Notes under the pieces: model-generated
What the model was told of the DNA's origin: nothing
The model's input: only the letters and a program-made list of their open reading frames with translations
The model's database searches: none
Shown: one piece after another, positions 6,481-58,833 of the stretch
Layout: each line of letters opens with the position of its first letter
Position numbering within the stretch: position 1 is the stretch's first letter
Position numbers and translations under genes: made by a program
From: Alphaproteobacteria bacterium MarineAlpha9_Bin6
GTDB lineage: Bacteria > Pseudomonadota > Alphaproteobacteria > UBA7887
DNA length: 64,000 bases
Direction: 5' to 3'
Assembly (NCBI GenBank): GCA_002937585.1
Contig: PTKE01000001.1
Coordinates: forward strand, 5,936-69,935

Positions 6481-6493
6481 TGAGGAAAACTCA

Positions 6494-8635: not shown

Positions 8636-8738
8636 TCCGACAGGCCACGGTTATCCAATTTTACGGCAACGCATGCAGAGAATTTAGATCGAACGGGCGA
8701 ACACGACCATAAACGCCGTATGAAGCAGGCGGTCCCGC

Positions 8739-20606: not shown

Positions 20607-20607
20607 A

Positions 20608-21189: not shown

Positions 21190-21288
21190 AGTAATACAGA
21201 AATTAATTAATCTTCTAGATGAGATGTGTGCCATGAACGATTGGTTATTGAGCAATACTCAAAACCCAAGACTGAGCCGGCGATCCTT

Positions 21289-22611: not shown

Positions 22612-22650
22612 TTTCAACTTGTCACTAACAAAGTAGGAAAACCTCGACTT

Positions 22651-35969: not shown

Positions 35970-36359
35970 ATGTCTGACAAAAGCGAAAACAAAGAAGAAA
36001 TTAGCAAAGCAATAATCCGCAAGGCAGTTGAAGTGATGTGGGAGGATTTGCCAGGACACTTCGACGGTGCCTTGTCAAAAATGCTGATAACCCCCTCGAA
36101 TGCTCCGACTAAACATTTTGATTTTCGTCTCTCTACCTACCAACCCAAAGGCTTTGTCGCCAAACACCGTCACGAGGTCGAAGAACAGATTTACTATATG
36201 CTTGAAGGAGAAGGTTTGATGGAGCTAGATGGCGTCCGTAAAGTGGTACGCTCTGGGGCAACCATTTTCATTCCTTCCGGGGTCGAGCACGCTCTTTACA
36301 ATACCGGAACCAACGACCTTACTTTCCTGGTAATCACCAGCCCCCCTCTAACTAACTGA
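35970..36359 (+). CDS. Cupin-domain protein
   Basis: 129 aa; cupin motifs (HRHEVEEQIYYMLEGEG ... FIPSGVEHALYN); overlaps the convergent TcuA-like gene by 12 nt. Confidence 0.65.
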   Translation: MSDKSENKEEISKAIIRKAVEVMWEDLPGHFDGALSKMLITPSNAPTKHFDFRLSTYQPKGFVAKHRHEVEEQIYYMLEGEGLMELDGVRKVVRSGATIFIPSGVEHALYNTGTNDLTFLVITSPPLTN

Positions 36360-37853
36360 ATTTCCTGTATCCTCACCAATAGCGAACTGCCCGGAAGAAA
36401 CGCCAGCAATACGCCCAAAGACAGCTCCAGAGGTCAGGCCGGTACCGCCCGGATAGTTGAAATAGAACAACCCCCCAACCAATTCACCAGCTGCATACAA
36501 CCCAGCAATCGGGGCTTGTTCCATATCAAGGACATGAGCTTGGTTATCGACTCGTAACCCTCCAAAGGTGAAGGTAATGCCGCAGGTTACGGCATATGCC
36601 GAGAATGGGGGTTGATCGATTCGATTAGCCCAATTTGACTTCGGCACTGAAAGTCCGACCGTACCTCGGCCATCCTTGATGTTGGGATTAAAGTCTATCT
36701 CTGTAGACACCGCGGCATTGTATGCGTCAACAGTCATACGGGCACGTGAGGAATTCACACCATCAAGTTTTCCAACGAGATCTTCGAGATTCTCGGCGGT
36801 GACCTTGGTGACCTCACGAATTCGATACTCGTCACGTAAAAGATGAGCCACTTGAGAATCGAATATTTGCCAGGCAAATTGCCCTGGTTGCTTCAAAACC
36901 TCGCTTCCATACTTCGCGTATGTGTAGTTACGAAAGTCCGCTCCCTCATCGACAAAACGTTCTCCGTTGGCGTTGATCATAATGCCAAAGGGATAACTAT
37001 GTTTCTGAAAACCATCTCCGACAGCAAGATCACCAAAGTCAGGCGCATTCCGATCCCATCCAACGGCATGGCAACCTGACCAATTCCCATACGGCATAGC
37101 ACCGGCGTCAAGCGCTATTTTAATGCCACCTCCGGTATTGAAGCGACTTCCACGGACTTTCGCCAAGTCCCAACCAGGGCCTAAATATCGCGTGCGCCAT
37201 TCAGTATTCGCTTCAAAACCGCCACTGGCTAAAACAACTGCATTTGCTTTAATATCGAACGTTTTTCCGTCACGGCGAACGCGAACGCCGTTTACCCCAC
37301 TATTATCTTGCGTCAGTTTAACTGCACGGGTTCCATAAAATACTTCGATCCCGGCTTTTCGCGCTGCTGAAAATAGTGCATCGACTAAGCCGGGACCGCC
37401 ACCCCACGCCTCAACGGTTAAACCACCCCAAAACTTGAACCGCCCACCAACCTTAAACGCTTGGCGACCGTAAATTGGAACAAATCGAACGCCCTTGTCA
37501 CGCATCCACAAGAGCGTCGTCATACTCCGCTTAACCAACAGGTCAACCAGATCAGGATCGGAGCGGTATTCAGTAACACGCGCCATATCATCAAAAAATT
37601 CATCTTGGGTGTATGTGCCAAAATCAGTTGTTTCGATCTCTTGCGCCGATAAGTCTGGCATCAATGCCTTTAATTCTTCGACCCCCTCATAAGCCACCCG
37701 AACCGCACCCGCAGTGAAACGGGAATTACCTCCCCGTTCTTCCTCAGGAGCACACTCTAGAACTACTACCGATGCCCCCTGCTCGCGTGCCGCTATAGCG
37801 GCACATAATCCAGCATTACCGGCCCCGACCACGACTACCTTACGATTCGACAT
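36348..37853 (-). CDS. FAD-binding dehydrogenase, tricarballylate-dehydrogenase (TcuA) / fumarate-reductase-flavoprotein-like
   Basis: 501 aa; N-terminal VVVVGAGNAGLCAAIAA dinucleotide-binding motif; TcuA-like length and motifs. Confidence 0.7.
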   Translation of the reverse strand: MSNRKVVVVGAGNAGLCAAIAAREQGASVVVLECAPEEERGGNSRFTAGAVRVAYEGVEELKALMPDLSAQEIETTDFGTYTQDEFFDDMARVTEYRSDPDLVDLLVKRSMTTLLWMRDKGVRFVPIYGRQAFKVGGRFKFWGGLTVEAWGGGPGLVDALFSAARKAGIEVFYGTRAVKLTQDNSGVNGVRVRRDGKTFDIKANAVVLASGGFEANTEWRTRYLGPGWDLAKVRGSRFNTGGGIKIALDAGAMPYGNWSGCHAVGWDRNAPDFGDLAVGDGFQKHSYPFGIMINANGERFVDEGADFRNYTYAKYGSEVLKQPGQFAWQIFDSQVAHLLRDEYRIREVTKVTAENLEDLVGKLDGVNSSRARMTVDAYNAAVSTEIDFNPNIKDGRGTVGLSVPKSNWANRIDQPPFSAYAVTCGITFTFGGLRVDNQAHVLDMEQAPIAGLYAAGELVGGLFYFNYPGGTGLTSGAVFGRIAGVSSGQFAIGEDTGNSVS

Positions 37854-37969
37854 ACACCGCCTCCGGAAAAACTGCTAACGTGATAATAGCGCTTGCACAA
37901 ACGCCGCAAAGGTCATTACAAACATTCCTTAGCAAAGGCCCGCTTCATAAAAAATTAGAAAGTAAAAGC

Positions 37970-38188
37970 ATGGCGCAGCAAGTCCACACTGATGTTTCGG
38001 GATTGGTTTGGAAAGTGCTCGTTAAACCTGGCGATCAGGTCAAGAGCGGAGACGTGTTATTCATACTCGAAGTAATGAAAACGGAGGTGCCATACGAAGC
38101 CGACATGGACGGTGAAATCACGGCAGTCCACATCACGGAAGACACAGGCATGGTCCAAGAGGACACTCTTGCTATTGAAATCTCCTAA
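37970..38188 (+). CDS. Stand-alone biotinyl (biotin/lipoyl-attachment) domain protein, mini-BCCP
   Basis: About 72 aa from MAQQ (ORF track 37880); flanking pattern G.V..VLVKPGDQVKSGDVLFILEVMKTE...GEITAVHI...TLAIEI matches the biotinyl-domain fold with the candidate biotinyl-Lys in EVMKT; convergent, 24 bp from the carboxyltransferase stop. Confidence 0.55.
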   Translation: MAQQVHTDVSGLVWKVLVKPGDQVKSGDVLFILEVMKTEVPYEADMDGEITAVHITEDTGMVQEDTLAIEIS

Positions 38189-38212
38189 CTGAAAAAATAA
38201 CCCGAGCACATC

Positions 38213-39760
38213 TCAAGGTCGCATCGTAAAACTGGCAGTGCCGGTTTTCCGGAGAGGTGCCGCGATGTTGGCAAACTCACACAACAATGGGCGAGTATCG
38301 CGCGGGTCAATTAGTTCTTCTACTGAATATCGCTCAGCAGTACGGAAGGGCGAACGCACTTGATTAAGCCGATATTCGATGTCTGCCAGCATTACGTCTC
38401 GATCTTCTGCCTTTTCCAAATCTGATTTGTAAGCTGCCTCAATCCCTCCTTCAAGCGGCAGCGAGCCCCAATCTCCAGAAGGCCAAGCGTATCTGTATTG
38501 AAAACGCTCTGCGTTGCTATGGCCGGCACCCGCTACCCCAAATACTTTGCGGATCAATACCGAACACCACGGAACCCGTGCCTGATAGAGTGCGGCGAGT
38601 GCCCGTGCGCCGTGCCGAATCGTTGCTGATTTTTCCGATTGCGTCCCAATCACAAAACCGGGGCAATCGACCAAATGCACCACCGGTAAATGAAACGTCT
38701 CAGCAAAATCGACAAATCGGGTCACCTTTATTGCAGCGTCGGCCGTCCAACCCCCAGCGTAAATGCGCGGATCACCTGCCATCAGTGCCACAGGCCAACC
38801 GTCTAACCGGGCCAAACCCGTAATGGCTGAGCGACCAAACAAGCGCCCTATTTCAAAAAAAGAACCTTTATCAACCACTGCCTCGACGATTGGCCGCATT
38901 TCGTAAATCTTACGACGGTCTCTTGGAACCGCCTCTATCAACCATTCCTCACGCCTGTCTTTTGAATCTGTCGGTTCGGTCCTTGGCGGCAAGTCATGCA
39001 CTGACGAGGGAAGATACGACAAAAAAGACTTTGTTCGAGCAAAAGCCTCAGCCTCGGACTCAACTTCATCGTCTACCGCACCATTGCGACAGTGTATGCT
39101 ACTGCCGCCCAGTTCCTCTTTAGTCACCTTCTCGCCCAGTCTTGCCACCACGGGCGGGCCAGCAACAAACATCTGAGACTGTCCTTTTACCATAAGCGCA
39201 TAGTGACTGGTCGCCACCCTCGCTGCACCAAGTCCGGCTACTGGTCCGAGCGCGAGTGCAACGACGGGCACTTGACCCATATTGGCAACCACCCAGTCCC
39301 ACCCTGGATTACCCGGAACATACGTATATCCGTCGGTTTCGAGTGATTTTACGGATCCGCCTCCGCCCGTGCCCTCAACTAATCTGACTACTGGTAAATT
39401 TAACTCGTAGGCCATCTGCTCGGCCGCGATTTGCTTCTCGTGAATAGTGGCGTCAGCCGCACCACCGCGAACAGTAAAATCGTCGCCTACTAAAACCACA
39501 TTTCGCTCATCGATCCTCCCTCTACCAAATATACAGTTCGAAGGCCGGAAGGACTTTAACTTACCATCTGGACCATATTCCGACTTGCCGCTTATCGCCC
39601 CAATTTCGTGAAAACTATCCGGGTCTAGAATGGCATCAATACGCTCCCGGATAGTAAGTCTGCCTGCATCGTGCTGGCGTTTGATCTTTTCTGGCCCACC
39701 CATCGCGTAAGCCAGACTAATCCGCCTGTTCAGTTCATCGATTTCAGCATTCCAAGACAT
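38213..39760 (-). CDS. Acyl-CoA carboxylase carboxyltransferase (beta) subunit, methylcrotonyl/geranyl-CoA carboxylase beta-like
   Basis: 515 aa; N-terminus aligns with MccB/AtuC-type CT (RISLAYAMGGPEKIKRQHDAGRLTIRERIDAILDPDSF); two crotonase-like CT domains. Confidence 0.8.
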   Translation of the reverse strand: MSWNAEIDELNRRISLAYAMGGPEKIKRQHDAGRLTIRERIDAILDPDSFHEIGAISGKSEYGPDGKLKSFRPSNCIFGRGRIDERNVVLVGDDFTVRGGAADATIHEKQIAAEQMAYELNLPVVRLVEGTGGGGSVKSLETDGYTYVPGNPGWDWVVANMGQVPVVALALGPVAGLGAARVATSHYALMVKGQSQMFVAGPPVVARLGEKVTKEELGGSSIHCRNGAVDDEVESEAEAFARTKSFLSYLPSSVHDLPPRTEPTDSKDRREEWLIEAVPRDRRKIYEMRPIVEAVVDKGSFFEIGRLFGRSAITGLARLDGWPVALMAGDPRIYAGGWTADAAIKVTRFVDFAETFHLPVVHLVDCPGFVIGTQSEKSATIRHGARALAALYQARVPWCSVLIRKVFGVAGAGHSNAERFQYRYAWPSGDWGSLPLEGGIEAAYKSDLEKAEDRDVMLADIEYRLNQVRSPFRTAERYSVEELIDPRDTRPLLCEFANIAAPLRKTGTASFTMRP

Positions 39761-39951
39761 AATATAAATTTACGACTTTCTTGAATTCTTACTGAGCTCG
39801 TTATCTTCAAACAATTTAAATCGTGCCAAGATGGATACCATTTCCCTGATTTTTCTCATGCGACATAACTTTTCTGGCTCGTCTGATCATGGAGGACTTG
39901 TTGTTACAGATAGGATCGGTGTCATAAATCTCTTATTCCAATCTTAGCCCT

Positions 39952-41142
39952 TCAGACTACGCTGTCGGACTGTAATGCCGCAACTTGGTCACGGTCATAA
40001 TCTATCCATTCAGAAAGAATTTCTGCCGTATGCTGACCAGCAGTGGGAATCGGATGTCGAACGGATAGATCCGTCTCAGACAATCTAGTGACAAAGCCAT
40101 GCATCGGAATTTTTCCAGCCTCTGCATGTTCAATTTCAATGATCTGCCCACGATGCCGAAGTTGTGGATCAGCAATTACATCAGCGATTTCAGCCACCTT
40201 GGCGCAGGGAACGCTGAACTTAGCCATAATCTCGACAACCTCGTTTGCCGTACGAGAACACATCCATGGCTCAATCTCTTCCTCCAAGGCGTCCACATTA
40301 GCACGTCGATCCGCATTCGATGCGAACCGAGGATCCGCTTCTAGATGCGAGAGTCCGGTCGCCTCAACAAATCGAGCGAAACGTGTATCGCCTCCCGCAA
40401 CGATTTGTACCCGCGCTCCTTCGGAGGTCACATACGAATTCGACGGCGCACCGAATCGATCCCTATTTCCAAATCTTTGGGCTTCCTCGCCCAATAGCTG
40501 GTATGCCGGAATTGCTGTCATCAGCATTGAAAGCGCACTATCAATAAGCGTCGCCCTAACTAATTGACCACGCCCTGTGGTGTTTCTCGCCTGAAGGGCA
40601 GCCAATATGCCAAGGACCGTATGCAACGCGGTTGCGTGATCCACTACCGTCGTACCCATTAAAGTGGGAGGACCATCGGGGGGACCCGTCATGGACATCA
40701 ATCCACTTGCCGCCTGGGCTATAGCATCAAAACAAGGTCGATCTGAACTTGGTCCCTCGTGGCCATAACCTGAAATGCGTGCCATGATTAGCCGCGGGTT
40801 GAGCTCATGTAACGTCTCCCAGCCACATCCCATTTTTTCCATGACGCCAGGTCGAAAATTTTCAACTAAAATGTCTGCCTCGGCAGCTAATTCACGCAAT
40901 ATTTCCTGCCCACGTGGATCCCGTAGGTTGAGAGTTACACTTTTCTTGTTGCGATTGAACATCATAAAGAAAAGGCTATCACCACCGATAAGTGGTTCGA
41001 TTTCGCGAGTTTCCTCTCCGGTTTTGAGCTTCTCAACCTTTATGACATCCGCACCAAGATCACCGAGCAACATCGCACAGTAGGGACCAGCGATATATCT
41101 TGAGACATCAAGTACCTTTAGTCCCTGCAGAGGTCCCATCAT
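39952..41142 (-). CDS. Family III CoA-transferase (CaiB/BaiF)
   Basis: 396 aa; N-terminal LKVLDVSRYIAGPYCAMLLGDLGADVIKVE is diagnostic of CaiB/BaiF. Confidence 0.85.
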   Translation of the reverse strand: MMGPLQGLKVLDVSRYIAGPYCAMLLGDLGADVIKVEKLKTGEETREIEPLIGGDSLFFMMFNRNKKSVTLNLRDPRGQEILRELAAEADILVENFRPGVMEKMGCGWETLHELNPRLIMARISGYGHEGPSSDRPCFDAIAQAASGLMSMTGPPDGPPTLMGTTVVDHATALHTVLGILAALQARNTTGRGQLVRATLIDSALSMLMTAIPAYQLLGEEAQRFGNRDRFGAPSNSYVTSEGARVQIVAGGDTRFARFVEATGLSHLEADPRFASNADRRANVDALEEEIEPWMCSRTANEVVEIMAKFSVPCAKVAEIADVIADPQLRHRGQIIEIEHAEAGKIPMHGFVTRLSETDLSVRHPIPTAGQHTAEILSEWIDYDRDQVAALQSDSVV

Positions 41143-41209
41143 AATTCCCCCAAGCCAACGTTTCGTTTATTGCTCACATTTAAGGTCAGTCGGCGCTATC
41201 CGTTACAAC

Positions 41210-42001
41210 CTAACCCCTTGCAGGAATTCCTCCCCGCAACAAACCCATACCAGCATCAATGGTAAAAAGCTCACCTGTGATATTTGGGGCTCCTTCCAGC
41301 AACCATACAACAGTGCTTGCAATGTCCTCAGGAGTATTGACCGCTTGAAGTGGTGTAGACGCTTTTATGTGAGCAACCATTCGGTCCGTTGCCTCTTCGC
41401 CAATTGCTTTTCTATGCCACCCACTTTCAATATAGCCAGGACACACAGCATTAATTTTTATTGCAGGACCAAGAGCACGTGCCATAGCGATTGTAATCGC
41501 ATTTAAAGCGCCCTTTGAACCGATATAGGCTAGGGATGAACCAATACTGTAGACGCCGGCCACGGAGGAGACATTGACGACCGCACCCTTCCCAGCAGCC
41601 TCCATATGTGGCGCAACGGCACGGATCATCTGAAACGCGCCAATGGTATTGACTGCATAAATTTCTTGAAAATCCAAGGCTGACAAGCCCTCAAGATCGT
41701 GATGTGGGCAAAATTGGGTAGTGCCGGCGTTGTTAACTAATCCATCTATATGACCCCACCGGTCTATCGCAACTTGCGCGAGCGTTCGACAATCCTCGTC
41801 TTTAGACACATCCGCCTGTTGAAGGATCACCTCAGCTCCGGATGCTTCACAAGCTTGCGCGACAGATTCGGCTTTCTCTGCGGAACGCGAGTAATTTACT
41901 ACTACCCTGGATCCCCGCTCTGCCAACATACGTGCCGTCGCGGCACCCGACCCACTGGCAGAGCCAGTGACAATGACCACTCCACCATCCAAATTAATCA
42001 T
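41210..42001 (-). CDS. Short-chain dehydrogenase/reductase (SDR)
   Basis: 263 aa; cofactor motif VTGSASGSGAA, NNAG, and catalytic YxxxK (YIGSKGAL). Confidence 0.85.
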   Translation of the reverse strand: MINLDGGVVIVTGSASGSGAATARMLAERGSRVVVNYSRSAEKAESVAQACEASGAEVILQQADVSKDEDCRTLAQVAIDRWGHIDGLVNNAGTTQFCPHHDLEGLSALDFQEIYAVNTIGAFQMIRAVAPHMEAAGKGAVVNVSSVAGVYSIGSSLAYIGSKGALNAITIAMARALGPAIKINAVCPGYIESGWHRKAIGEEATDRMVAHIKASTPLQAVNTPEDIASTVVWLLEGAPNITGELFTIDAGMGLLRGGIPARG

Positions 42002-42160
42002 ATCTTGTATTTCCTCTCTCTAATCCTCGGCGAACCAACAACAACCTCGTGGCAGCGAGGTTGGACCAGAATAGCCGGCGACATTTCCCGCCTGACTGAC
42101 AGAAGGCCATTGCGAAATTTATTGGCACGTGAAAAACAGCTTTAGGAAGCAAAAGCTTGT

Positions 42161-43246
42161 CTACTTAATCGCCGCGTTAACACGCGGCATTACTTCCTCC
42201 ATCATTAGCTGCATAGAACGCTTGGCTAATTCTTTATCCATCCAATCGTGGCCTGCATAAAGAAGCGTCCCAAAGTCTCCCACCAACTCTCGAAATTCCA
42301 AAAGCTGGTCCACTACCTCATTCACCGTGCCGCGGATTACTAACTGATCAACAATCGTCTCCAAATTTAATGATTCATCGGTCTGATTTTTATCGGTTTT
42401 GAACAAGTTTGCGCGTCCTCCACGCATCAGTTTCGTAAAAAGCGAATTGAAGTAAAAATAGTACGGACCATTCAGTCCTGTCGCATATGTTTCCGCCACA
42501 TCACTATCATCCGCCACGAATATACTTTTTGCTACTCTCCAATTAGCCGGCTCCGCGGCGCGCCCTGCTTCCGCACATCCCTCGGCATAGTTTGGCCAAT
42601 GTGACGCCACCCAAGCTGGCTGTAGAAAATTCGCCGAAATCGGCTCCCACCCGCGTGCCGCCGCCGCCTTAACACCCTTAGAAAAGGGAGCCACCGCTGT
42701 GACAATGATTGGCGGATGGGGCAATTGGTAGGGCTTACTGATTGTTCCTTGACCAATTTCAGGAATCATCGTTTGTTCAGTAGATATATCCCAGAATTCA
42801 CCCTTCAAATTGTAAGGTCCGTCCGCAGCCCAAATTTTTAATACGAGATCAATACCCTCCAGAAACATGGCGGTTCTGTCGTTTTCTAAATTTCCGAATA
42901 CTTCTGCATCTGACATCAGACCACCCGGGCTGACTCCAAACAAAAACCTGCCTTTTGCCATATGGTCTACCATTGCCACCTCGGCAGCGACTCTGGCTGG
43001 ATGGTGATTTGGAATATTTACTGTCCCAGTTCCTAAAATTATGTCTTTAGTCTGCTCCAGAAGCCACGCAATGAAAATAAGCGAAGACGTAACATTTTCT
43101 GCTTTGTCAGTTATATGTTCGCCAAAAAAACCTTCTTTAAAGCCAAGCTGGTCCGCCAAAATCGTCATCTCAAAATCTTCACGAAGTGTCTCAAATTGTG
43201 GGCGATGAGGCGGATGTACTGGCATTGTAAAAAAACCAAGATCCAT
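42161..43246 (-). CDS. LLM-class flavin-dependent oxidoreductase
   Basis: 361 aa; luciferase-like monooxygenase composition; paralogous to 30572 and 56065. Confidence 0.75.
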   Translation of the reverse strand: MDLGFFTMPVHPPHRPQFETLREDFEMTILADQLGFKEGFFGEHITDKAENVTSSLIFIAWLLEQTKDIILGTGTVNIPNHHPARVAAEVAMVDHMAKGRFLFGVSPGGLMSDAEVFGNLENDRTAMFLEGIDLVLKIWAADGPYNLKGEFWDISTEQTMIPEIGQGTISKPYQLPHPPIIVTAVAPFSKGVKAAAARGWEPISANFLQPAWVASHWPNYAEGCAEAGRAAEPANWRVAKSIFVADDSDVAETYATGLNGPYYFYFNSLFTKLMRGGRANLFKTDKNQTDESLNLETIVDQLVIRGTVNEVVDQLLEFRELVGDFGTLLYAGHDWMDKELAKRSMQLMMEEVMPRVNAAIK

Positions 43247-43443
43247 AACGCTAACTCCAGCATAAATTTATCTGTTAATGACGGATCAACTCAGTTTTCT
43301 ATACTTTCAAATCGGCATTGCGCTTCCACTGAATCGAACTTAAAAGGCCGTTAAGATTGGATCACAATTTTTTATAATCCAACCTGACAAGATAATTTTG
43401 GTGTCCGCAAGCTTGGTGCAGTTACCTTTAATTGTAGTTCCTA

Positions 43444-45402
43444 TTATACAGTTATCCCGGCCTGATGGCCTTCATGGATCGCCGCTGCCATGCCACGGGG
43501 CGCATTGCAATCTCCGACGAATTGTGCTGGGAATCCTGCTCCTCGAACACTCACCATCAGCTCATCATCGACTTTCCTCGGAGTCGCATATGTCAAACAG
43601 GTCACGCCTTCGATTTCAGTTTCATCCCCATTTAGGATATTCCTGAGAAGCAATGTCTCATTATTTAATGCAAGGGGAACTGTGGTTGCAATTATATCAA
43701 TCCGCAAAATTGATAGACGCCGCATCACGCCAATAAGAGATATATAGTTAACCTTCGAGCCAATCGTCGTTTTTGGGGTAACGATTATCAATCTCTGATA
43801 GCGTTGCGCTAAAAGCTCCGACGCTGCGTATACTGCTGCAGTGTGATCCTGATCAAACAGAATTGCTGTTCCTTTTCGTTCCTGATCTTGATGCAACAAC
43901 TCTTTTGACAATGAACGGAGCTCACAAGCTGGACTGTCTTTAGCCAAAGTTTCCGGCCAAACCGGCTGCGCACCCGTGGCAAAAACTACTTTTTGTGGGC
44001 CAAATTCATTAATTTCTCGCAAGGATACTCGTTTCCCCAACTCAAACTGCACCCCCGCTTCTTCGGCACGAATTTTTTGAAAGTTGATTGCTCGGGCGAT
44101 ATCACCTCGCCCTGGCAAACATGCTTCTAAAAATGCTTTCCCACCAACCTTACTTGAAGCACCAAACAGTATGACGTCATGGCCACGGGCGGCCGAAATC
44201 CACGCTGCCTCAAGACCTGCAACCCCAGCTCCCACCACTGCAACGCGCTTTTTTTGAATTGCACGTTCCGGGCGCCAATCGGATTCACCTGAAGTCCCTA
44301 ATTCCGGATTATGAACACAGGCTATGCCACGTCCAACATGGACTTCACCCCAACAATAATTACAAGAGATACAGGGCCGTATTTCATTTTCTCTTCCCTG
44401 CAACGTTTTTTTTACCCATGCGGCGTCACTCAACAGGACTCGACTTAAGCCAATTAGGTCTCCATATCCCTCTGTAAGTGCTTTCTCCGCTGCCTCTGCT
44501 GTTTTTATTCGTCCCATCGTCATAACCGGTATGCTACCCACCCGCTTGCGCATGCGACCATGTAGTTTAAGGAAGGGCCCAAGAGGGAAGTGCATATCTG
44601 GCAAATGAGTCTCGAGGCTCGCGCTGGAATTCCCCTGGCTAAATGCAAAATAGTCGACCCCACCCAAAGCAACGAGATAATCGATAATCTTTTCCGCTTC
44701 GTTTGGGTCTATCCCGCCAGTAACCCCTTCATCGCACGGCATCTTTAGACCAATCAAAAACTCTTTCCCGCACTCCTTCCGTATTCGGTTGATCAGCTGA
44801 CTCACGAATTTTAGGCGGCCTTCACGACTGCCACCATAGTCGTCGTTCCGATCATTGGAAAACGGTGACATAAACTGTGTAAGCAGGTAACCATGTGCTC
44901 CGTGCAATTCGATACCGCTAAACCCAGCTCTTTGAAGCCGTTCCGAAGATTCTACGAAACTATTAATGAGTTCATTTATTTCGTTATGATCAAGCTCGTG
45001 CGCAACGGTCCAGCTTAAAGGATCTGGCTTAGAGGTTGCGCTAACCGGTGTCGCCAAAGAGTTCCACAATTGCTGACGTCCGACATGGCCAATCTGGCCG
45101 ACGAGCCTACAGTCCTCGCCTTCAATTGTATCCGCCCAACGTTTTAGAAGTTCAAAATTTTTTTCATCAAAAACATTCACCAAAAATGGATTGGCGATAG
45201 AGGTGTGATGGACAGGCATTAGCTCGGTCACGATCATTGCCGTTCCACCTGCCGCCCTTGCGTGGTGGTAATCAATAAGGCGTTGGGTTGGCTTTCCGTT
45301 TGCGCCATATGCAGTAACTGTAGCGGTGTGCACAATACGGTTTCGAAGTTTCTGAACCCCAACAGTAATTGGACTAAAAAGAGTGGGGTACTTCATGGAC
45401 AT
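43444..45402 (-). CDS. NADH:flavin oxidoreductase / 2,4-dienoyl-CoA reductase-like (OYE TIM barrel + Fe-S + FAD/NAD(P) domains)
   Basis: 652 aa; N-terminal old-yellow-enzyme barrel; FadH-type 4Fe-4S motif RPCISCNYCWGE...C; C-terminal VAVVGAGVAGLEAA Rossmann. Confidence 0.8.
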   Translation of the reverse strand: MSMKYPTLFSPITVGVQKLRNRIVHTATVTAYGANGKPTQRLIDYHHARAAGGTAMIVTELMPVHHTSIANPFLVNVFDEKNFELLKRWADTIEGEDCRLVGQIGHVGRQQLWNSLATPVSATSKPDPLSWTVAHELDHNEINELINSFVESSERLQRAGFSGIELHGAHGYLLTQFMSPFSNDRNDDYGGSREGRLKFVSQLINRIRKECGKEFLIGLKMPCDEGVTGGIDPNEAEKIIDYLVALGGVDYFAFSQGNSSASLETHLPDMHFPLGPFLKLHGRMRKRVGSIPVMTMGRIKTAEAAEKALTEGYGDLIGLSRVLLSDAAWVKKTLQGRENEIRPCISCNYCWGEVHVGRGIACVHNPELGTSGESDWRPERAIQKKRVAVVGAGVAGLEAAWISAARGHDVILFGASSKVGGKAFLEACLPGRGDIARAINFQKIRAEEAGVQFELGKRVSLREINEFGPQKVVFATGAQPVWPETLAKDSPACELRSLSKELLHQDQERKGTAILFDQDHTAAVYAASELLAQRYQRLIIVTPKTTIGSKVNYISLIGVMRRLSILRIDIIATTVPLALNNETLLLRNILNGDETEIEGVTCLTYATPRKVDDELMVSVRGAGFPAQFVGDCNAPRGMAAAIHEGHQAGITV

Positions 45403-45539
45403 TATAGAGATACCGTACGATTTCAGGTTGTACTACCTATTTAGGAAGACCCAATTCCAAGTACCGCTCGCATTGTGACGAAAACTATCACAACGATTCA
45501 TGGATAATGAAATTTGGGCGCAAAACCCTACCATAATTT

Positions 45540-46835
45540 TTAAGCTAAGGTTGACCACTCCGCAACCACTTCAAGAACTGAGTCCACCAAATATGATAGA
45601 TCTTCCTTACGTATGTTTAGCGCTGGAGTCAGATAGACAATGTCTCGAAAAGGCCTAATCCAAACGCCCGCCTCGATAAATCTCGTGCGCATCCAATCAA
45701 GACGCATCGACCCAGAAAGCTGAACGACCCCTATAGCTCCCTTTACCCTAATGTCTGTTACCCGTGGGATTTTATGAGCTGGTGCCAACGATTCTTTTAA
45801 CTGTGACTCGATGGCCTCGACTTGCTCCAATCGCGGTTCCTGTTCAAACAAATCGAAAGAAGCGTTCGCAGCAGCACAGGCTAGGGCGTTTGCCATATAT
45901 GTCGGTCCATGCATCAAGGCTGCACCGGAATCTTCAGATAAAAATGTTTCAAACACATCCTCTGATGCCACGGTTGCAGCCAATGACATCGTCCCTCCCG
46001 TTAGCGCCTTGGAAAGGGTAATGATGTCAGGAACAATCCTTGCTTCATCGTGCGCGAACATTGCGCCGGTACGTCCAAATCCGGTGAAAATTTCATCAAG
46101 TATCAAGAGCAGGCCCCACTCATTACAGGCGGCTCGCAGACGCTGCAACACAACCGCATCATGCATCTGCATGCCTCCCGCCCCCTGGACTAACGGCTCA
46201 ATGATAACCGCAGCGCAATGATCAGCGTTCGACTGAAGAAACTTCTCAAACTGTTCGAAATCAGATGCGTTGCGCGGCAGCGGCAAAACATGTTGTTCAA
46301 CAAGAGTACTCTTAAACAAGGAATGCATGCCTTCCTCCGGATCACAAACGGACATTGCGCCAAATGTATCGCCATGATAACCGCCCAGAAAACTTATGAT
46401 TCGGTTTCGCTCGGGTCGGCCTTTGTTTATCCAGAATTGGATTGCCATCTTCAGAGCAATTTCGACTGAAACCGAACCAGATTCGGAGAAGAAAACGCGG
46501 CTCAAAGGATTAGGCAGAACATCGGTGATCCGATTGGCCAGTAGGAGAGCGGGCTCATGAACCAACCCGCCAAACATGACATGCGGCATTACATCTAATT
46601 GTTTGGCTACTGCTGCACGGATGTGAGGATGGTTGTAGCCATGACACGCAGTCCACCATGAAGCGATTCCGTCAATCAGCTCCCGCCCGTCTGCCAACCG
46701 TATTCGTGTGCCATTGGTAGCAACCACAGGGGTCGGTGGTGGAGTCGTCTGCATCTGAGTATATGGTAACCAGACGTGTGGGAACCCGTCCTCAAACCAA
46801 GTACAAGACTCTGATTCAATGCTTTTAGGCGGCAC
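45540..46835 (-). CDS. bioA: Adenosylmethionine--8-amino-7-oxononanoate transaminase
   Basis: 431 aa; BioA hallmark SWWTACHGYNHP; class-III aminotransferase motif ILDEIFTGFGRTG. Confidence 0.8.
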   Translation of the reverse strand: MPPKSIESESCTWFEDGFPHVWLPYTQMQTTPPPTPVVATNGTRIRLADGRELIDGIASWWTACHGYNHPHIRAAVAKQLDVMPHVMFGGLVHEPALLLANRITDVLPNPLSRVFFSESGSVSVEIALKMAIQFWINKGRPERNRIISFLGGYHGDTFGAMSVCDPEEGMHSLFKSTLVEQHVLPLPRNASDFEQFEKFLQSNADHCAAVIIEPLVQGAGGMQMHDAVVLQRLRAACNEWGLLLILDEIFTGFGRTGAMFAHDEARIVPDIITLSKALTGGTMSLAATVASEDVFETFLSEDSGAALMHGPTYMANALACAAANASFDLFEQEPRLEQVEAIESQLKESLAPAHKIPRVTDIRVKGAIGVVQLSGSMRLDWMRTRFIEAGVWIRPFRDIVYLTPALNIRKEDLSYLVDSVLEVVAEWSTLA

Positions 46836-46852
46836 GAATAGTCCAGTATAAT

Positions 46853-46915
46853 TTAGACGTTAAGCCGTATATCTTATCTAGGACATAAGATGACAATTTC
46901 TGCTCATAGACGTTA
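46853..46915. promoter_or_regulatory. Candidate bio operator in the bioA/bioF divergent promoter region
   Basis: 7-bp perfect inverted repeat ATCTTAT-ctaggac-ATAAGAT (46871-46891) flanked by two direct copies of TAGACGTTA (46853-46861 and 46907-46915). Confidence 0.3.
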
Positions 46916-47086
46916 GTTAGTTGCGGTCTGCACCATGGTTTTATTCAGAATAGATAACGCTGGGCAGGCGTCAAGCAGCACAACATTGACAGCCTGCTTT
47001 CCATGCGGTGACAATAATAAACATGCAAAACCTAATTGAGTTCTGCTTTGCTCTCCTGATTTGAACGCCAGAGCCTTTTTGTAACC

Positions 47087-48241
47087 ATGCAACCTCTAGA
47101 TCAATTTGCAGCTGAAAAGCTCTTGCAGCTCGAATCCCAAAACCTTAGACGAATCCTGGTTGAAACCCATCGCTCGACAAATGGCACAGCTAAACGTTCT
47201 GGACGCGAACTTATCTCGTTTGCGTGTAACGATTACCTAAACCTTTCTGGCGATTCCCGAGTTGTCCGAGCAGCACAGAAGGCCATTGAGCAATACGGTG
47301 TGGGTGCGGGTGCATCCCGTCTAGTTACCGGAAATCACCCTCTCTATCAAAATTTGGAAAAACGCCTTGCTCGGCTCAAAAACACCGAGGATGCTTGCGT
47401 ATTTGGTTCTGGATATTTGGCAAATCTTGGAATTATCCCAAGTCTGGTTGGAGCTAAAGACCTTATAGTTGCCGATGAGTTGAGCCACGCATGCATTTTA
47501 GCAGCCAGCAAACTAAGTTCCGCGCATCTTGAGGTATTCCGGCACAATGATATCCATCACGCAGCTGAAATTCTTAATGAGCGTCGTGCGCAGCACCCAC
47601 ACGCCATGATCCTTACCGACGGCGTGTTTAGCATGGACGGAGACCTTGCCCCTCTTAACGAACTTTCCGCTCTAGCCAAAGACTATGAGTCCTGGCTAAT
47701 GACCGACGACGCACATGGCGTGGGAGTGCTTGGGGCCGGACGTGGTTCTACTTTTTCTAGCGGCGTTCAGGCGGAAGTACCTCTACAAATGGGGACGCTC
47801 TCCAAGGCGATTGGAAGCTACGGAGGTTACCTTTGCGCCTCTAAGTCTGTCATTAATCTGATACGAACACGTGCTCGCACACTAATTTACTCTACTGGTT
47901 TACCGCCCGCAATCGTAGCAGCGAGCATCGCTGCACTAGAAATTATTGAAACTCATCCCGAATTAACAGCAAGGCCTCTGGAGAATGCTCAGCTCTTTAC
48001 GCAATTTTTAGGTGTTCCCGAAGCTGAAAGTTGCATCGTTCCCTTGGTACTAGGAGATCCAGAGCAAACACTTCGAGCTTCTGAGTCCTTGGAAAAGGAA
48101 GGTTACCTGGTCACAGCCATCCGCCCACCAACAGTACCTACAGGAACCGCGCGATTGCGATTTGCTTTTACAGCCGCCCATGATCCAAAAGATATCCGAC
48201 GACTAGCAGAAATCGTAAAACAGAAAATATTGAAGGGATAA
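47087..48241 (+). CDS. bioF: 8-amino-7-oxononanoate synthase
   Basis: 384 aa alpha-oxoamine synthase; PLP-Lys motif GTLSKAIGS; divergent from bioA. Confidence 0.8.
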   Translation: MQPLDQFAAEKLLQLESQNLRRILVETHRSTNGTAKRSGRELISFACNDYLNLSGDSRVVRAAQKAIEQYGVGAGASRLVTGNHPLYQNLEKRLARLKNTEDACVFGSGYLANLGIIPSLVGAKDLIVADELSHACILAASKLSSAHLEVFRHNDIHHAAEILNERRAQHPHAMILTDGVFSMDGDLAPLNELSALAKDYESWLMTDDAHGVGVLGAGRGSTFSSGVQAEVPLQMGTLSKAIGSYGGYLCASKSVINLIRTRARTLIYSTGLPPAIVAASIAALEIIETHPELTARPLENAQLFTQFLGVPEAESCIVPLVLGDPEQTLRASESLEKEGYLVTAIRPPTVPTGTARLRFAFTAAHDPKDIRRLAEIVKQKILKG

Positions 48242-48245
48242 TCGT

Positions 48246-48950
48246 ATAAGTACTTACTTCATTACCGCCACGGGTACGGGCGTAGGAAAAACCTTTGTTA
48301 CTGCAGCACTTTGCTATCAGCTGCGGTCGCACGGGAATCCGGCGCGTACTCTTAAGCCGGTGATCAGCGGCTACAACGAAAAAGATCTGGAGAATAGTGA
48401 CTCAGGAATCCTATTGAATAGCATGGGGATACAACCTTGCCACGAAGAGGTACAAAAAATCTCGCCATGGCGTTTTTCTGCCGCCATCTCACCCGATATG
48501 GCTGCACAACGAGAAAACCGCCATATTGATTTTGAAGAACTCTTGCAATTCTGCCGAAATATTTCTGCGCAAAAAAACAGCTCACAAAAACATGTCATTT
48601 TCATTGAGGGGGTCGGCGGCGCTATGGTCCCTCTGGATGAAGAACACACGGTAATGGATTGGATGGCCACTCTCGATGTTCCAACACTCGTCGTAGCCGG
48701 CAGTTATCTTGGCACTATCAGTCATACCCTTACTACCGTAGAAGCCATGAGTCGTAATAGTATTCGGCCTGTCGCTATTATCATCAGTGAATCCCAAGAA
48801 AATCCTGTACCACTGGAGCTTACGTCGGAGACAATATCCCGGTTTCTGCCAGAAATCCCTGTAGCGACAGTTCCACGAATTGCCACTTCAAAGCATGCTT
48901 GGAAGAAAGCTCCTGACCTTCGAGGACTTATAAAAATTCCCGGAGACTGA
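48246..48950 (+). CDS. bioD: Dethiobiotin synthetase; apparent non-canonical AUA start
   Basis: The ORF track (48360, GTG) omits the P-loop; the same frame reads (I)STYFITATGTGVGKT from ATA 48246, 5 nt after the bioF stop, with a GAAGGGA RBS 7 nt upstream; no ATG/GTG/TTG between the in-frame stop at 48231 and the P-loop. Confidence 0.7.
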   Translation: MSTYFITATGTGVGKTFVTAALCYQLRSHGNPARTLKPVISGYNEKDLENSDSGILLNSMGIQPCHEEVQKISPWRFSAAISPDMAAQRENRHIDFEELLQFCRNISAQKNSSQKHVIFIEGVGGAMVPLDEEHTVMDWMATLDVPTLVVAGSYLGTISHTLTTVEAMSRNSIRPVAIIISESQENPVPLELTSETISRFLPEIPVATVPRIATSKHAWKKAPDLRGLIKIPGD

Positions 48951-54712: not shown

Positions 54713-55876
54713 TTAATTGGGAAACCCTTCGAATCCGGTAACTCTGGCCAACGTCTCAAAAAACGCTCGTTTTCTAGACGTGTTGATAGCCCAGTTTATC
54801 GGAGGATTTTGGTATCCGTTGATGTAGTCTCCATAGAAGAGTTTTCCTCCGGCGGCAGCGCCAGGGTCAAAATAACCCCATCCAGCCCGCACCTGTAAAG
54901 CAGCACGGAAGTTGTGGCACGGCTGGTCAAAATCGAAATGATCATCTTCATTAAAAAATACTGGTTGCCCGCGGTAACTCGGGACCGACCGAACCCGTTT
55001 TACCATACGTTTTATACCTTCGGGACGGTCGACTCCGTTTCCATGCAAAAGAATAAAATCAGATACTTCGACCACCTCAGGACTTGGCGCCTCACGCTGG
55101 GTAAAACTTGTACCCACCAAAAGACGATGATTCCCATACTCAACAGAGCGTGCTTGCGAAATTAATTCATGGACCCGATGCGGTTGCAAAATTTGATGTT
55201 CGTATCTAGGAACATCAGTTTCATTATTTATTTCGATAATCACATTTCGATAACCCTGACGAAGTATCCACAGACAGACCTCACCTACAGCTGCACGTAC
55301 CGCTTTTTCATCCGATAATTTTTCATCCTGGCCGAAATAGAATAGCCCCAGGCAAACAATGAGACCTGCAGCATCTGCCGCCTCAATAAGATGAGCAGTG
55401 CGCGAGCAAGTGTCCGGATCAAATACCCCAGCGCCATCAAATCCACTTGACTGCCAAGGCTGAGATTCTAAACCGGTTAAACCGGCCCAAATGTCGGTAT
55501 CTCCTGCACCGGGATGTCGAACATGAATGCGCCTACGTAGTTCATTCAGAAAAACCGGATTATCACGATAATATCCAAGCGGTGAACCACCCTGTAAATT
55601 GACATTAATCGCGGTCAATCCATGTGCGGCATAAACAGGAAGCATTTTTGCTAATTCAATAGTGTTGCGTCCCGCTTCCCAAATTCCAGTGTCAGGGTAG
55701 GCCCACAGATGGCGGGTCAATGAATTCGAGTCGTCAAAAACGCCATTCGCCATTCGAGTGTTGAGGAGCAATCCCTCAATATGGATATCTTGATGCCAAC
55801 GTCCTTCATAAGTCGGATGGCCATTAATCAGCCAACTATCTCCATCAATTTCAATCTCGCTACGAGCTTTCCACAT
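54713..55876 (-). CDS. Putative clan GH-A TIM-barrel glycoside hydrolase (GH5/DUF4038-like)
   Basis: 387 aa; IIEINNE acid/base NE motif typical of clan GH-A; convergent with the BNR protein. Confidence 0.5.
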   Translation of the reverse strand: MWKARSEIEIDGDSWLINGHPTYEGRWHQDIHIEGLLLNTRMANGVFDDSNSLTRHLWAYPDTGIWEAGRNTIELAKMLPVYAAHGLTAINVNLQGGSPLGYYRDNPVFLNELRRRIHVRHPGAGDTDIWAGLTGLESQPWQSSGFDGAGVFDPDTCSRTAHLIEAADAAGLIVCLGLFYFGQDEKLSDEKAVRAAVGEVCLWILRQGYRNVIIEINNETDVPRYEHQILQPHRVHELISQARSVEYGNHRLLVGTSFTQREAPSPEVVEVSDFILLHGNGVDRPEGIKRMVKRVRSVPSYRGQPVFFNEDDHFDFDQPCHNFRAALQVRAGWGYFDPGAAAGGKLFYGDYINGYQNPPINWAINTSRKRAFFETLARVTGFEGFPN

Positions 55877-56987: not shown

Positions 56988-57569
56988 CTATTCTTTACCA
57001 AGACTTCTCGAAAAGAAATTTCTGATACTCACCCAAACAGATTTCACCAACAGCCATCCGATTTTCAAATCGCGACCGCTCCTTTGGTAGTCCTTCTTAG
57101 GACCCTCAAAACCCGCACGCCGACTCAGCATTTCATCCAAGCTTGCGCTGAATTGAGTCGTAATTTGTCGTGCAAATTCCTCAACGATGGCACCGCGTCC
57201 AATCTGCGCTAGAGAACCATTCAGTGCATAGTCTGCCTCCACCTCCACCAAGGTTTCGGAGCCCTCGCCAATGTCAATCAACTGGTAGGAAAGGGTGGCT
57301 TTAGCACCTGAGTTGGAACCTTTGTCCCTTCCTTTTCCGTGCAATCTCCCACTCCACGACCCATGATTCCGATCAACCAGACCATCACCCACGAAGTGCA
57401 GTCGCATCGGTCCTAGTCTTGCAGTGACTTCACCGGTAAAAGATTCCGAACCCTCTAGTTTCGTAATTTTGGCACCGGGAAAACAATTTGCCAGTGCCTC
57501 AATATCGTGGAACAAATCCCACACATCCTCCCGAGGATGTGGCACGGAAATTTTTTGCGAAAGCCTCAT
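56988..57569 (-). CDS. CoxG-family (SRPBCC) carbon-monoxide-dehydrogenase subunit G-like protein
   Basis: 193 aa; N-terminus MRLSQKISVPHPREDVWDLFHDIEALANCFPGAKI typical of CoxG; last gene of the L-M-S-G operon. Confidence 0.7.
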   Translation of the reverse strand: MRLSQKISVPHPREDVWDLFHDIEALANCFPGAKITKLEGSESFTGEVTARLGPMRLHFVGDGLVDRNHGSWSGRLHGKGRDKGSNSGAKATLSYQLIDIGEGSETLVEVEADYALNGSLAQIGRGAIVEEFARQITTQFSASLDEMLSRRAGFEGPKKDYQRSGRDLKIGWLLVKSVWVSIRNFFSRSLGKE

Positions 57570-58045
57570 CCGTTTTCACTAGGAGGCCCTAGCACTCGTC
57601 GCAAAGCACACACAATCCCTTTGTAACCGGTACAACGACAAAGATTGCCTGCTAGCTCCAAACGAAGACGATTGTCATCTGCATCCGGCAACCTGTGTAC
57701 GATGTCGTACGCAGTGATCAACATCCCAGGCGTACAGTAACCGCACTGCAACGCATGTTCTGAAATAAAAGCGGAACGCAATTTTTCCATCTGGGGATCA
57801 TCTTTAAATCCTTCGATTGATATCACTTCTGCGTCATCACAAGATGCGGCCAACGTAATACAAGATCTCGAAGGCGCGCCATTGATCCAGACGGTACACG
57901 CGCCACACACACCATGCTCACACCCCAAATGAGTGCCTGTTAACAGTAACGTTTCGCGCAAAAAATCCGCCAAACTTTGCCGAGATTCTATGGTTTCATT
58001 TACTTTTTTCCCGTTCACCCTCAGTCCAATATTCACCTGGGTCAT
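57566..58045 (-). CDS. (2Fe-2S)-binding small subunit of xanthine-dehydrogenase-family molybdoenzyme (CoxS-like)
   Basis: 159 aa; both [2Fe-2S] cysteine motifs (GCEHGVCGACTV and QCGYCTPGM...CRCTGY); overlaps its neighbours by 4 nt. Confidence 0.85.
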   Translation of the reverse strand: MTQVNIGLRVNGKKVNETIESRQSLADFLRETLLLTGTHLGCEHGVCGACTVWINGAPSRSCITLAASCDDAEVISIEGFKDDPQMEKLRSAFISEHALQCGYCTPGMLITAYDIVHRLPDADDNRLRLELAGNLCRCTGYKGIVCALRRVLGPPSENG

Positions 58046-58833
58046 ATCTGTACCTCTGCTATCGCTTTTCGAAGTGCAGCGAAATGCGTGGTACGTTCGT
58101 AAGATTTAGAACTGCCCAGGAAAGCATCGATCTTGGATTCTTCCTTGCCGTCCCAAATCTCATCCAAACAAGCCGGGCTCGACTGTCTTGCACCAAGAAC
58201 GGTCTTGTGGAGATCTAATTTTTCATCAACCAACATGACCGCAATAGCCTTCGCAAATTCTCCTGGCTTTTGACATGCCTTCACGTAGGCCCAACGGGCT
58301 GATTGCGTTAATCTAGGCAACTCGATGGCAAATAGAACTTCGTCATCATTCAGGCTGGTCTGAAACGGCCCTTCCAGAAATTTGTTTATATCGACGGTCC
58401 GGGAGCCATTCGGCCCTCTTACCTCAAGTCGGGCCCCCATTGCGGTAAGTGCGGAAGGCCAGTCCGCCGAAGGATCTGCATGAGCAAGGCTTCCACCGAC
58501 CGTGCCACGATTACGAACGGCTCGATAAGCAATCCCGCCTGCCACTTCACGTAAATAGAGGCCGGTTTTTCCTTCTACAATCCCGTCCTCAATCATTGCA
58601 TGCGTAACCCCGGCACCAATTCTCACAGTTTTGTTTGTTTGTTCAACTCCGTGAAGCTCTCTCAGTCGAGATATGTCGACAACCAAGTCCGGTCGTACCA
58701 GACGAAAATTCATCATAGGGCACAACGACTGACCGCCCGCCAGAAGTTTCTTGAAGACACTTTGGTCCGCCAAGACTGTTACGGCATCCTCTAGAGATGA
58801 TGCCCTATAATATTTAAATGCGGGCGCTTTCAA
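58042..58833 (-). CDS. FAD-binding medium subunit of xanthine-dehydrogenase-family molybdoenzyme (CoxM-like)
   Basis: 263 aa; FAD-binding PCMH domain (LLAGGQSL) plus CO-dehydrogenase flavoprotein C-terminal domain. Confidence 0.8.
   Translation of the reverse strand: MKAPAFKYYRASSLEDAVTVLADQSVFKKLLAGGQSLCPMMNFRLVRPDLVVDISRLRELHGVEQTNKTVRIGAGVTHAMIEDGIVEGKTGLYLREVAGGIAYRAVRNRGTVGGSLAHADPSADWPSALTAMGARLEVRGPNGSRTVDINKFLEGPFQTSLNDDEVLFAIELPRLTQSARWAYVKACQKPGEFAKAIAVMLVDEKLDLHKTVLGARQSSPACLDEIWDGKEESKIDAFLGSSKSYERTTHFAALRKAIAEVQI

Follow-up and report, generated by a model that had tools for sequence, protein, structure and literature searches.

A carboxyltransferase and a free biotin carrier without a neighboring biotin carboxylase in a marine alphaproteobacterium

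Where does a biotin-dependent carboxyltransferase (CT) obtain charged biotin when no biotin carboxylase (BC) is encoded anywhere near it? The question is raised by a 64-kb stretch of the genome of Alphaproteobacteria bacterium MarineAlpha9_Bin6 (called the window below, all positions being given in its numbering), in which the gene for a CT of 515 aa (38213–39760, minus strand) converges with a gene for a stand-alone biotin carboxyl carrier of 72 aa (37970–38188, plus strand), their stop codons separated by a spacer of 24 bp (38189–38212). The original prediction for this region, made from the DNA letters, saw the pair as part of a catabolic island abutting genes of biotin synthesis and left a choice: either the enzyme borrows a BC encoded in trans or it is a soluble decarboxylase of a new kind. 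I will argue that the CT and the carrier probably supply two of the three components of a split, biotin-dependent acyl-CoA carboxylase, the BC being encoded elsewhere.

The lack of a BC within the 64 kb is real. Genes were identified by their matches to Pfam and NCBIfam profiles, NCBIfam scores being set against the cutoffs of the models, and on this basis the genes and coordinates first listed for the region were all borne out. The open reading frames (ORFs) of the window that are at least 120 aa long and were judged real were either scanned or covered by precomputed Pfam calls, and none of them contains an ATP-grasp or Biotin_carb domain; a tblastn search of the window with E. coli AccC gave nothing better than E = 2. 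The claim that no BC is encoded here is thus correct, and so is the companion claim about the partners of decarboxylases and transcarboxylases, since the scanned ORFs include no match to the OAD_beta membrane subunit and no HMGL-like domain of a 5S subunit.

The carboxyltransferase and the 72-residue carrier

The match of the CT to PF01039 (4.6e-86) spans residues 28–499 and takes in the full-length, two-domain Carboxyl_trans fold, and the best match in the PDB is 1x0u from Sulfolobus tokodaii (279 bits); the alignment to it, as to 3n6r, extends over roughly residues 7–494. The protein had been called MccB/AtuC-like, a label that should be replaced: proteins of the PccB/MmdA/12S type, at 242–279 bits, are nearer than either MccB (174 bits) or the beta subunit of geranyl-CoA carboxylase (145 bits). 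No NCBIfam model reaches its cutoff with the CT.

Alignment to solved structures of the PccB type shows where the protein departs from its relatives. DSGGARIQEG is replaced by EGTGGGGSV with a 5-residue insertion, AGGAVYS by AGLGAAR, YGGAY(D/I/V) by FGVAGA, and AWPTAEIAVMG by AWPSGDWGSLP, with GSLPLEGG in the region of AVMG. These replacements are conserved within the clade to which the CT belongs, and they recur in a sister clade, 43–46% identical to the window CT, whose members also share the C-terminal motif F[ST][IM]RP. I take the exchanged segments to be the oxyanion-hole and specificity motifs that line the active site of PccB, where the contacts are made by backbone amides, so that the CT may well have retained activity despite the changes. 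The residue aligned with D422 of PccB, which I take to be a specificity position, is alanine and is invariant across the clade. Because no NCBIfam cutoff is reached and because the conserved motif replacements are common to the sister clade, the CT is an uncharacterized branch of the PccB-like carboxyltransferases. Literature searches turned up no specific account of such an enzyme or gene cluster.

The branch is by no means rare. Orthologs at 60–97% identity are present in very many metagenomes and metagenome-assembled genomes (MAGs), and their hosts, marine and soil bacteria, include Alpha-, Beta- and Gammaproteobacteria, Acidimicrobiia, SAR324 and Pelagibacterales, with Cupriavidus and Pseudonocardia among the genera. 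Over Proteobacteria, Acidimicrobiia and SAR324 the identities run from 60 to 88%, and between classes the proteins remain 60–79% identical, yet the clade matches no curated carboxylase family, and to learn its substrate would close a gap in our picture of how heterotrophs abundant in the ocean metabolize carbon.

The carrier (PF00364, 9e-14) has the acceptor lysine of a biotinyl domain in an (A/V)MK(M/T) hairpin, here EVMKTE. The predicted biotinyl-lysine is K37 of 72, in the motif LFILEVMKTEVP, 35 residues from the C-terminus. The best match in the PDB is BLAP/YngHB of Bacillus subtilis (1z6h, E = 8.6e-10). A protein search found a family of carriers 72 aa long and 58–96% identical (two of the cluster representatives are shorter fragments), in which K37 and the core LFILEVMKTEVP are invariant. 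It is a tight alphaproteobacterial family with the motif LFILEVMK[T/M]EVP. Compared with its 80%-identical ortholog at locus L088, the carrier gene has 27 synonymous and 14 non-synonymous codon changes, the latter mostly conservative. Since synonymous changes outnumber the others, and since the family is tight with an invariant core, the 72-aa ORF is a real gene under purifying selection.

The threonine that follows the biotinyl-lysine might be mistaken for a sign of decay. Among 85 family members, however, threonine (EVMKTE) stands at this position in 57 and methionine (EVMKME) in 28, and MKT is found also in an AccB-like protein adjoining a 59%-identical AccC (L017). Since the two residues alternate within one family and MKT recurs in that AccB-like protein, MKT seems to be a family variant rather than a mark of degeneration.

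Neighborhoods of the pair and the search for its carboxylase

I examined 80 loci with orthologs of the CT, clustering the neighbors anew with codon-position GC scoring; calls based on the longest ORF had given antisense shadow ORFs in high-GC loci. A biotinyl protein of about 70 aa is encoded within 1 kb of the CT at 20 of the 80 loci, on either side and on either strand. These cases are dispersed across five or more subclades of the CT tree and across several phyla, and the adjacency has therefore arisen or been kept repeatedly. The convergent layout of the window, with 4–25 bp between the two ORFs, is seen in Acidimicrobiia (L029, L035, L045, L051 and L056). A conserved SDR-CaiB-CT-carrier block that seemed to be present in Acidimicrobiia was rejected, Pfam assigning the genes upstream of the CT to an AIR-synthase-like protein, a phosphotransferase and an enoyl-CoA hydratase (ECH). 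In relatives where the CT is 72–79% identical to that of the window it stands alone among unrelated housekeeping genes.

Some of the loci have the complete set of CT, carrier and BC, with BCs of 450–485 aa. In Cupriavidus (L072 and L073) the order is sigma54 activator / CT-TctC-ADP-forming acyl-CoA synthetase-BC-carrier-thioesterase, the BC of L073 being 473 aa long. A gammaproteobacterial MAG (L043) has ECH-HIBADH-carrier-CT-thiolase-like-BC, with a BC of 485 aa, and an alphaproteobacterial MAG (L016) has a CT-carrier pair together with a BC. The adjacent BCs are paralogs of AccC, about 44–46% identical to the E. coli protein. The cluster at L073:8089–16820, from Cupriavidus ulmosensis, encodes a sigma54 enhancer-binding protein, a TctC solute receptor and a 4HBT thioesterase besides the carboxylase genes, and it looks like a complete route for the uptake, activation, carboxylation and hydrolysis of an acid.

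The carrier family leads to BCs by a second path. At 20 metagenomic loci (among L107–L179) a member 55–68% identical to the window carrier closes an operon LamB/YcsF-BC-CT_C_D-CT_A_B-carrier, exemplified by L131:698–4953, where a LamB/YcsF protein is followed by a BC of 455 aa, CT_C_D of 289 aa, CT_A_B of 322 aa and the 72-aa carrier. The operon looks like a split urea-carboxylase-like enzyme, and since the carrier closes it, the family evidently operates alongside BC. Members of the carrier family also accompany the sister clade of the CT: at 21 metagenomic loci (for example L150:8420–10210, L118, L124 and L134–L139) a gene for a carrier of 71–72 aa follows the CT on the same strand about 22 bp downstream, and the neighbors of these pairs vary (amidohydrolase, SelA/SelB, PQQ dehydrogenase, TauD).

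The two genes can also part. In two chromosome-scale assemblies they appear to lie unlinked on one contig: CT L007 and carrier L096 both fall on a contig of 3,261,019 bp, about 365–385 kb apart, and for CT P0023 as for carrier P0187 the longest contig is given as 2,926,781 bp, the identity of the contig being taken in each case from its equal size. A third candidate, CT P0073 and carrier P0176, whose contigs match in length (12,846 bp), was discarded, because the contig of the carrier (L099) contains no CT. The carrier of L096, like that of L097 on the contig of 2,926,781 bp, stands by itself among housekeeping genes.

It is on these observations that the split carboxylase rests. The linkage of CT and carrier is recurrent, complete sets with a BC exist, the carrier family occurs in BC operons, the genes of CT and carrier can be unlinked, the closest solved relatives of the two proteins are BLAP and 1x0u, and the carrier is under purifying selection. 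Of the two choices originally offered, BC in trans thus gains support both from the orthologous CTs that have a small carrier and a separate BC (L072/L073, L016 and L043) and from the carriers in BC operons and the apparently unlinked genes. I consider this reading somewhat more probable than all the others together. Biotin protein ligase would then biotinylate K37 of the free carrier, a BC encoded in trans would carboxylate the biotin of the carrier with ATP and bicarbonate, and the CT, a hexamer of the PccB type by homology, would pass the carboxyl group on to a short acyl-CoA, at the alpha-carbon. The acyl-CoA might be made by the adjacent family III (CaiB/Frc-type) CoA-transferase (39952–41142, minus strand, 396 aa; PF02515, 1.9e-128), which is a candidate for the supply of substrate. 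Inferred in this scheme are the BC itself and the place of its gene (the organism could have an AccC paralog dedicated to this enzyme, or the BC might be shared with a second carboxylase), the substrate, the direction in which the reaction runs, and any connection with CaiB.

Several facts weigh against a split carboxylase. Its key partner is inferred, no BC having been found in the 64 kb. The BCs that do adjoin such pairs are 43–53% identical between lineages, hardly closer to one another than each is to E. coli AccC, and no single dedicated lineage of BC is therefore evident among them. Where the flanks of a CT-carrier pair extend at least 5 kb on both sides, BC is absent at 12 of the 14 pairs of the clade and at all 8 pairs of the sister clade. 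Finally, the CT differs from PccB at the motifs described above (AGG to AGL, YGGA to FGVA, AVMG to GSLP), and its canonical chemistry is an assumption.

So systematic an absence would also fit an enzyme that needs no BC, one in which CT and carrier together form either a soluble decarboxylase, CO2 passing from a carboxy-acyl-CoA to biotin and then being lost, or an acyl-CoA:acyl-CoA transcarboxylase. No BC lies within 10 kb of the pair at the 12 long loci of the clade or at the 8 of the sister clade, both clades share the non-canonical active-site motifs, two different CT paralogs stand side by side in L028 and L055, and the window contains neither a membrane beta subunit nor a 5S subunit. I nevertheless consider this explanation unlikely. 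Complete clusters of BC, carrier and CT exist for the very same CT clade, and the same carrier family occurs in operons that contain BC. Unlinked genes are normal for multi-subunit carboxylases, as in E. coli, whose accA, accD and accBC lie apart, and the loss of CO2 from carboxybiotin is slow without a dedicated decarboxylase subunit. A BC missing from the vicinity of a CT and its small carrier is common in the clade and so provides no evidence for a decarboxylase.

There is small probability as well in the broader proposition that the BC-less pairs of the window clade and its 44%-identical sister clade make up a distinct class of soluble biotin enzymes. Were it true, the class would need no dedicated BC, and its members might be acyl-CoA:acyl-CoA transcarboxylases or decarboxylases without a pump; the carrier of this lineage would additionally be tied to biotin supply, as the layouts bioD-bioB-carrier and carrier/CaiB-SDR-bioA/bioFD suggest.

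The surrounding genes and biotin synthesis

The second claim of the original prediction, that the island adjoins bioA, bioF and bioD, holds for the presence of the three genes, all of which exceed the cutoffs of their equivalog models. The gene bioA (adenosylmethionine-8-amino-7-oxononanoate transaminase; 45540–46835, minus strand, 431 aa; NF004624, 575 bits against a cutoff of 494) opens the minus-strand series, and divergent from it runs bioF (8-amino-7-oxononanoate synthase; 47087–48241, plus strand, 384 aa; TIGR00858, 443 bits against 426), which is followed by bioD (dethiobiotin synthase; 48246–48950, plus strand; TIGR00347, 87.5 bits against 83.3). The start of bioD as first given does not stand, since it omits the P-loop. 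The ORF that begins at GTG 48360, the first ATG, GTG or TTG, matches TIGR00347 only from profile position 44, and the P-loop TGTGVGKT lies upstream of it, in frame at about 48267–48290. Between the stop codon of bioF (48239–48241) and the P-loop, the possible starts are ATA at 48246, preceded by AGGGA, and ATT at 48261. Automatic gene calls on identical contigs likewise give a product of 175 aa without P-loop. Either bioD starts at a rare codon or it is defective. Neither bioB (Radical_SAM/BATS) nor any known gene for making the pimelate moiety (BioC, BioH, BioZ, BioW, BioI) was detected in the window; other parts of the genome may carry them.

The co-localization of the pair with biotin genes was taken at first to suggest a coordinated supply of the cofactor. 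This idea finds limited support, and for the carrier, not the CT: two different layouts bring the carrier close to bio genes, while outside this lineage the CT has no association with them. The synteny of the window is repeated around the carriers of L100 and L088. L098, whose carrier is 82% identical, has TcuA/carrier/CaiB-SDR-bioA/bioF-bioD, with no CT, no luciferase-like flavin oxidoreductase (LLM) and no reductase of the Old Yellow Enzyme (OYE) family; L104 and L106 have the carrier-CaiB(-SDR) end of the L098 layout. The second layout is that of L099 (GCA_028289725.1, a MAG; 5743–9225), where bioA is divergent from bioD-bioB-carrier, the three on the same strand, an arrangement that places a free biotin carrier, here 72% identical, inside an operon for biotin synthesis. 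The linkage is confined to a subgroup of carriers at least 72% identical to that of the window, and shared ancestry may account for it, all cases falling within this subgroup.

One might therefore ask whether the 72-aa protein is mainly an accessory of biotin homeostasis (an acceptor, sink or store), its adjacency to the CT in this lineage being secondary. The two layouts (that of the window, L098 and L100, and that of L099) speak for this, as does the carrier of L098, which stands beside the bio cluster in a locus without any CT. I regard the idea as quite unlikely, given that the linkage is seen only for carriers at least 72% identical to that of the window; more distant ones (55–68%) occur with CT or BC genes or alone, and L088 has kept carrier and CT while losing bioFD and half of bioA. 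A search for the BioR-type operator TTATMKATAA, with one mismatch allowed, gave 4 matches against 4.7 expected and none in the bio and carrier regions. A free carrier that recurs beside bio genes in one lineage is, all the same, a small lead on biotin homeostasis.

The remaining genes of the island lie between the carrier and bioA or on the far side of the carrier, all on the minus strand. A gene for a TcuA-like FAD-dependent dehydrogenase (36348–37853, 501 aa; PF00890) is transcribed divergently from the carrier gene. The models for TcuA give it a split verdict, NF006130 scoring 586 bits against a cutoff of 369 and the older TIGR02485 only 281 bits, below its cutoff of 372. In Salmonella, tcuABC encodes TcuA with TcuB, an Fe-S membrane protein, and the transporter TcuC; no partner of the TcuB kind (CCG/Fe-S) turned up among the ORFs of the window. 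The 116 bp separating the TcuA-like and carrier genes (37854–37969, as read from the sequence) presumably hold both promoters. A sigma-70 promoter scan of this region gave no significant match, and over 36–49 kb predicted promoters and terminators were no more frequent than in shuffled sequence. The spacer between CT and carrier is overlapped by a weak hairpin that resembles a terminator (minus strand, 38217–38201, six stem pairs and then a T-run). On its other side the TcuA-like gene is convergent with a cupin gene (35970–36359, plus strand), their 3' ends overlapping by 12 bp.

Beyond the CT and CaiB come genes for a short-chain dehydrogenase/reductase (SDR; 41210–42001, 263 aa; PF00106 and PF13561), the LLM (42161–43246, 361 aa; PF00296, 9.7e-42) and the OYE, a FadH-like OYE + 4Fe-4S + FAD/NAD reductase (43444–45402, 652 aa; PF00724) with the Fe-S motif C344xxC347xxC350x11C362. 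The gaps between the minus-strand genes from CT to bioA, described beforehand as short, measure 191, 67, 159, 197 and 137 bp and are not especially so.

Do the seven minus-strand genes encode one pathway, as was originally proposed? The synteny extends only to close relatives, and the gene set is not conserved even among these. Co-occurrence of this exact set in related genomes had been suggested at the outset as a check; TcuA, OYE or bio genes were found near the CT at none of the 80 ortholog loci. Relative to L098, the CT and its 191-bp spacer are an insertion between carrier and CaiB in the window, and LLM and OYE are a second one between SDR and bioA. The SDR is syntenic with CaiB in L088, L098, L100 and L106, and the divergent pair of TcuA and carrier is kept only where the carrier is at least about 80% identical (L088, L098, L100 and L105). 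LLM and OYE are variable inserts, both absent from L098. In L088 the OYE is the least conserved protein (67% identical), and in L100 (15237–17195; carrier 81% identical) it is called as two ORFs, an OYE domain of 334 aa and an FAD/NAD domain of 266 aa, the split being either a frameshift or pseudogene or else an assembly error. L088, with a CT 88% and a carrier 80% identical, keeps everything from OYE through TcuA. Its bioA, though, is a 3' fragment of 236 aa (L088:3770–4480) that matches residues 200–430 of BioA (the C-terminal 231) at 71%, bioF and bioD are gone, and the fragment abuts housekeeping genes of the rpoZ, gmk and yicC type, which indicates a rearrangement breakpoint inside bioA. 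Since L098, L100 and L088 differ in their content of CT, LLM, OYE and bio genes, the region is a mosaic that changes between close relatives, not a conserved unit of seven genes, and the TcuA-like gene, SDR, LLM, OYE and bio genes are lineage-specific neighbors rather than demonstrable parts of one pathway.

There is still something to be said for a single catabolic CoA-ester pathway for an organic acid, comprising OYE, LLM, SDR, CaiB, CT and the TcuA-like enzyme, with the CT as one step. L088 and L100 share the synteny of all seven genes, whose products are 62–88% identical there, and the region is flanked by transporter genes. The identity of CaiB, moreover, follows the presence of the CT, at 77–80% in relatives that have a CT and 57–61% in those that do not, and this covariation is the only hint of coupling within the island. 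I find such a pathway improbable nonetheless. L098 has kept TcuA, carrier, CaiB, SDR and bioA without CT, LLM or OYE, the OYE is split or divergent in the very relatives that share the synteny, and that synteny does not reach beyond them. The gaps of 67–197 bp and a carrier gene antisense between CT and TcuA argue against a single operon, and no regulator gene is present.

A bolder suggestion is that the biotin cluster itself is larger than it looks, CaiB and SDR, and possibly OYE and CT, supplying a glutaryl or pimeloyl thioester for BioF. In the BioZ route of Agrobacterium a type III CoA-transferase (CaiB) makes glutaryl-CoA for biotin synthesis (PMC7645780), a precedent that gives interest to the contiguous CaiB-SDR-bioA/bioF-bioD of L098. 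The lack of bioC, bioH, bioZ, bioW and bioI in the window also speaks for the suggestion. It is very unlikely to be correct. The best NCBIfam matches of CaiB are to formyl-CoA transferase (300 bits) and succinate-glutarate CoA-transferase (267 bits against a cutoff of 750), all of them below cutoff. No BioZ/FabH-like condensing enzyme is encoded nearby, bioB is absent from the window, and the synteny is limited to one lineage, in which L088 breaks the cluster.

An NCBIfam search with the upstream thiamine pyrophosphate enzyme, the cupin, the solute-binding protein and the LLM returned only below-cutoff matches, acetolactate-synthase-like and generic, which offered no hint of a pathway. Genes for the breakdown of aromatic compounds lie at 19905–23454 (the beta and alpha subunits of protocatechuate 3,4-dioxygenase, a Lyase_1 protein resembling 3-carboxymuconate cycloisomerase and a shikimate-dehydrogenase-like gene), and a second KstD-like FAD_binding_2 dehydrogenase at 18138–19763; they illustrate the density of catabolic oxidoreductases in the region. 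The window also contains a two-subunit 2-oxoacid:ferredoxin oxidoreductase (12699–15601, plus strand) and a cluster of CoxG with a CoxS/M/L-type molybdenum hydroxylase (56988–61181, minus strand). Two ORFs, one of 229 aa (23485–24174) and one of 387 aa (54713–55876), have no Pfam or NCBIfam match; the latter is syntenic with an adjacent aldo-keto reductase in L098.

Comparison with known systems

The decarboxylases GcdABCD and MmdABCD and the 12S/5S/1.3S transcarboxylase resemble the window in that they pair a CT with a small carrier and lack a BC. With the window CT the 12S subunit scores 242 bits, and the 1.3S subunit matches the carrier at E = 6e-8, but GcdA is distant (78 bits), and the defining partners of these enzymes, the membrane beta subunit and the 5S subunit, are not encoded in the window. 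Their carriers have an N-terminal anchoring segment, which the sequence of the window carrier lacks. The LamB/YcsF-BC-CT_C_D-CT_A_B-carrier operons use the same family of 72-aa carrier (55–68% identity, LFILEVMK[T/M]E), but their CT is of another fold (PF02682/PF02626) and their BC lies inside the operon. Bacterial PccB (3n6r, 1xny) has the same fold and domain order as the window CT, at 217–258 bits, and is paired with an alpha subunit in which BC and carrier are fused; the residue aligned with its D422 is alanine in the window CT.

Nearest among known systems are YngE/YngH/BLAP of B. subtilis and the acyl-CoA carboxylases of archaea, with their three subunits. Among solved structures the window CT comes closest to that of the archaeal acetyl/propionyl-CoA carboxylase (AccC, AccB and PccB; 1x0u, 279 bits). 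The PccB-type CT of this enzyme partners separate BC and carrier subunits, three in all, and its carrier is longer than that of the window. The archaeal CT retains DSGGARIQEG, AGGAVYS, YGGA and AWPTAEIAV, whereas the window CT has EGTGGGGSV, AGLGAAR, FGVAGA and AWPSGDWGSLP in their place.

A single operon contains the three genes in B. subtilis, whose enzyme is presumed to resemble 3-methylcrotonyl-CoA carboxylase, whereas the window has no BC within 64 kb and a CT that is PccB-like; BLAP has MKM, and the window carrier has MKT and is encoded antisense to its CT. BLAP/YngHB is biotinylated by BirA and is thought to serve the neighboring split carboxylase (PMC4016012). In YngE (CT), YngH (BC) and YngHB (a carrier of 73 aa), as in the reading that I favor for the window, CT, BC and carrier are separate polypeptides, and the carrier of both systems is a free protein of about 72 aa without an N-terminal extension.

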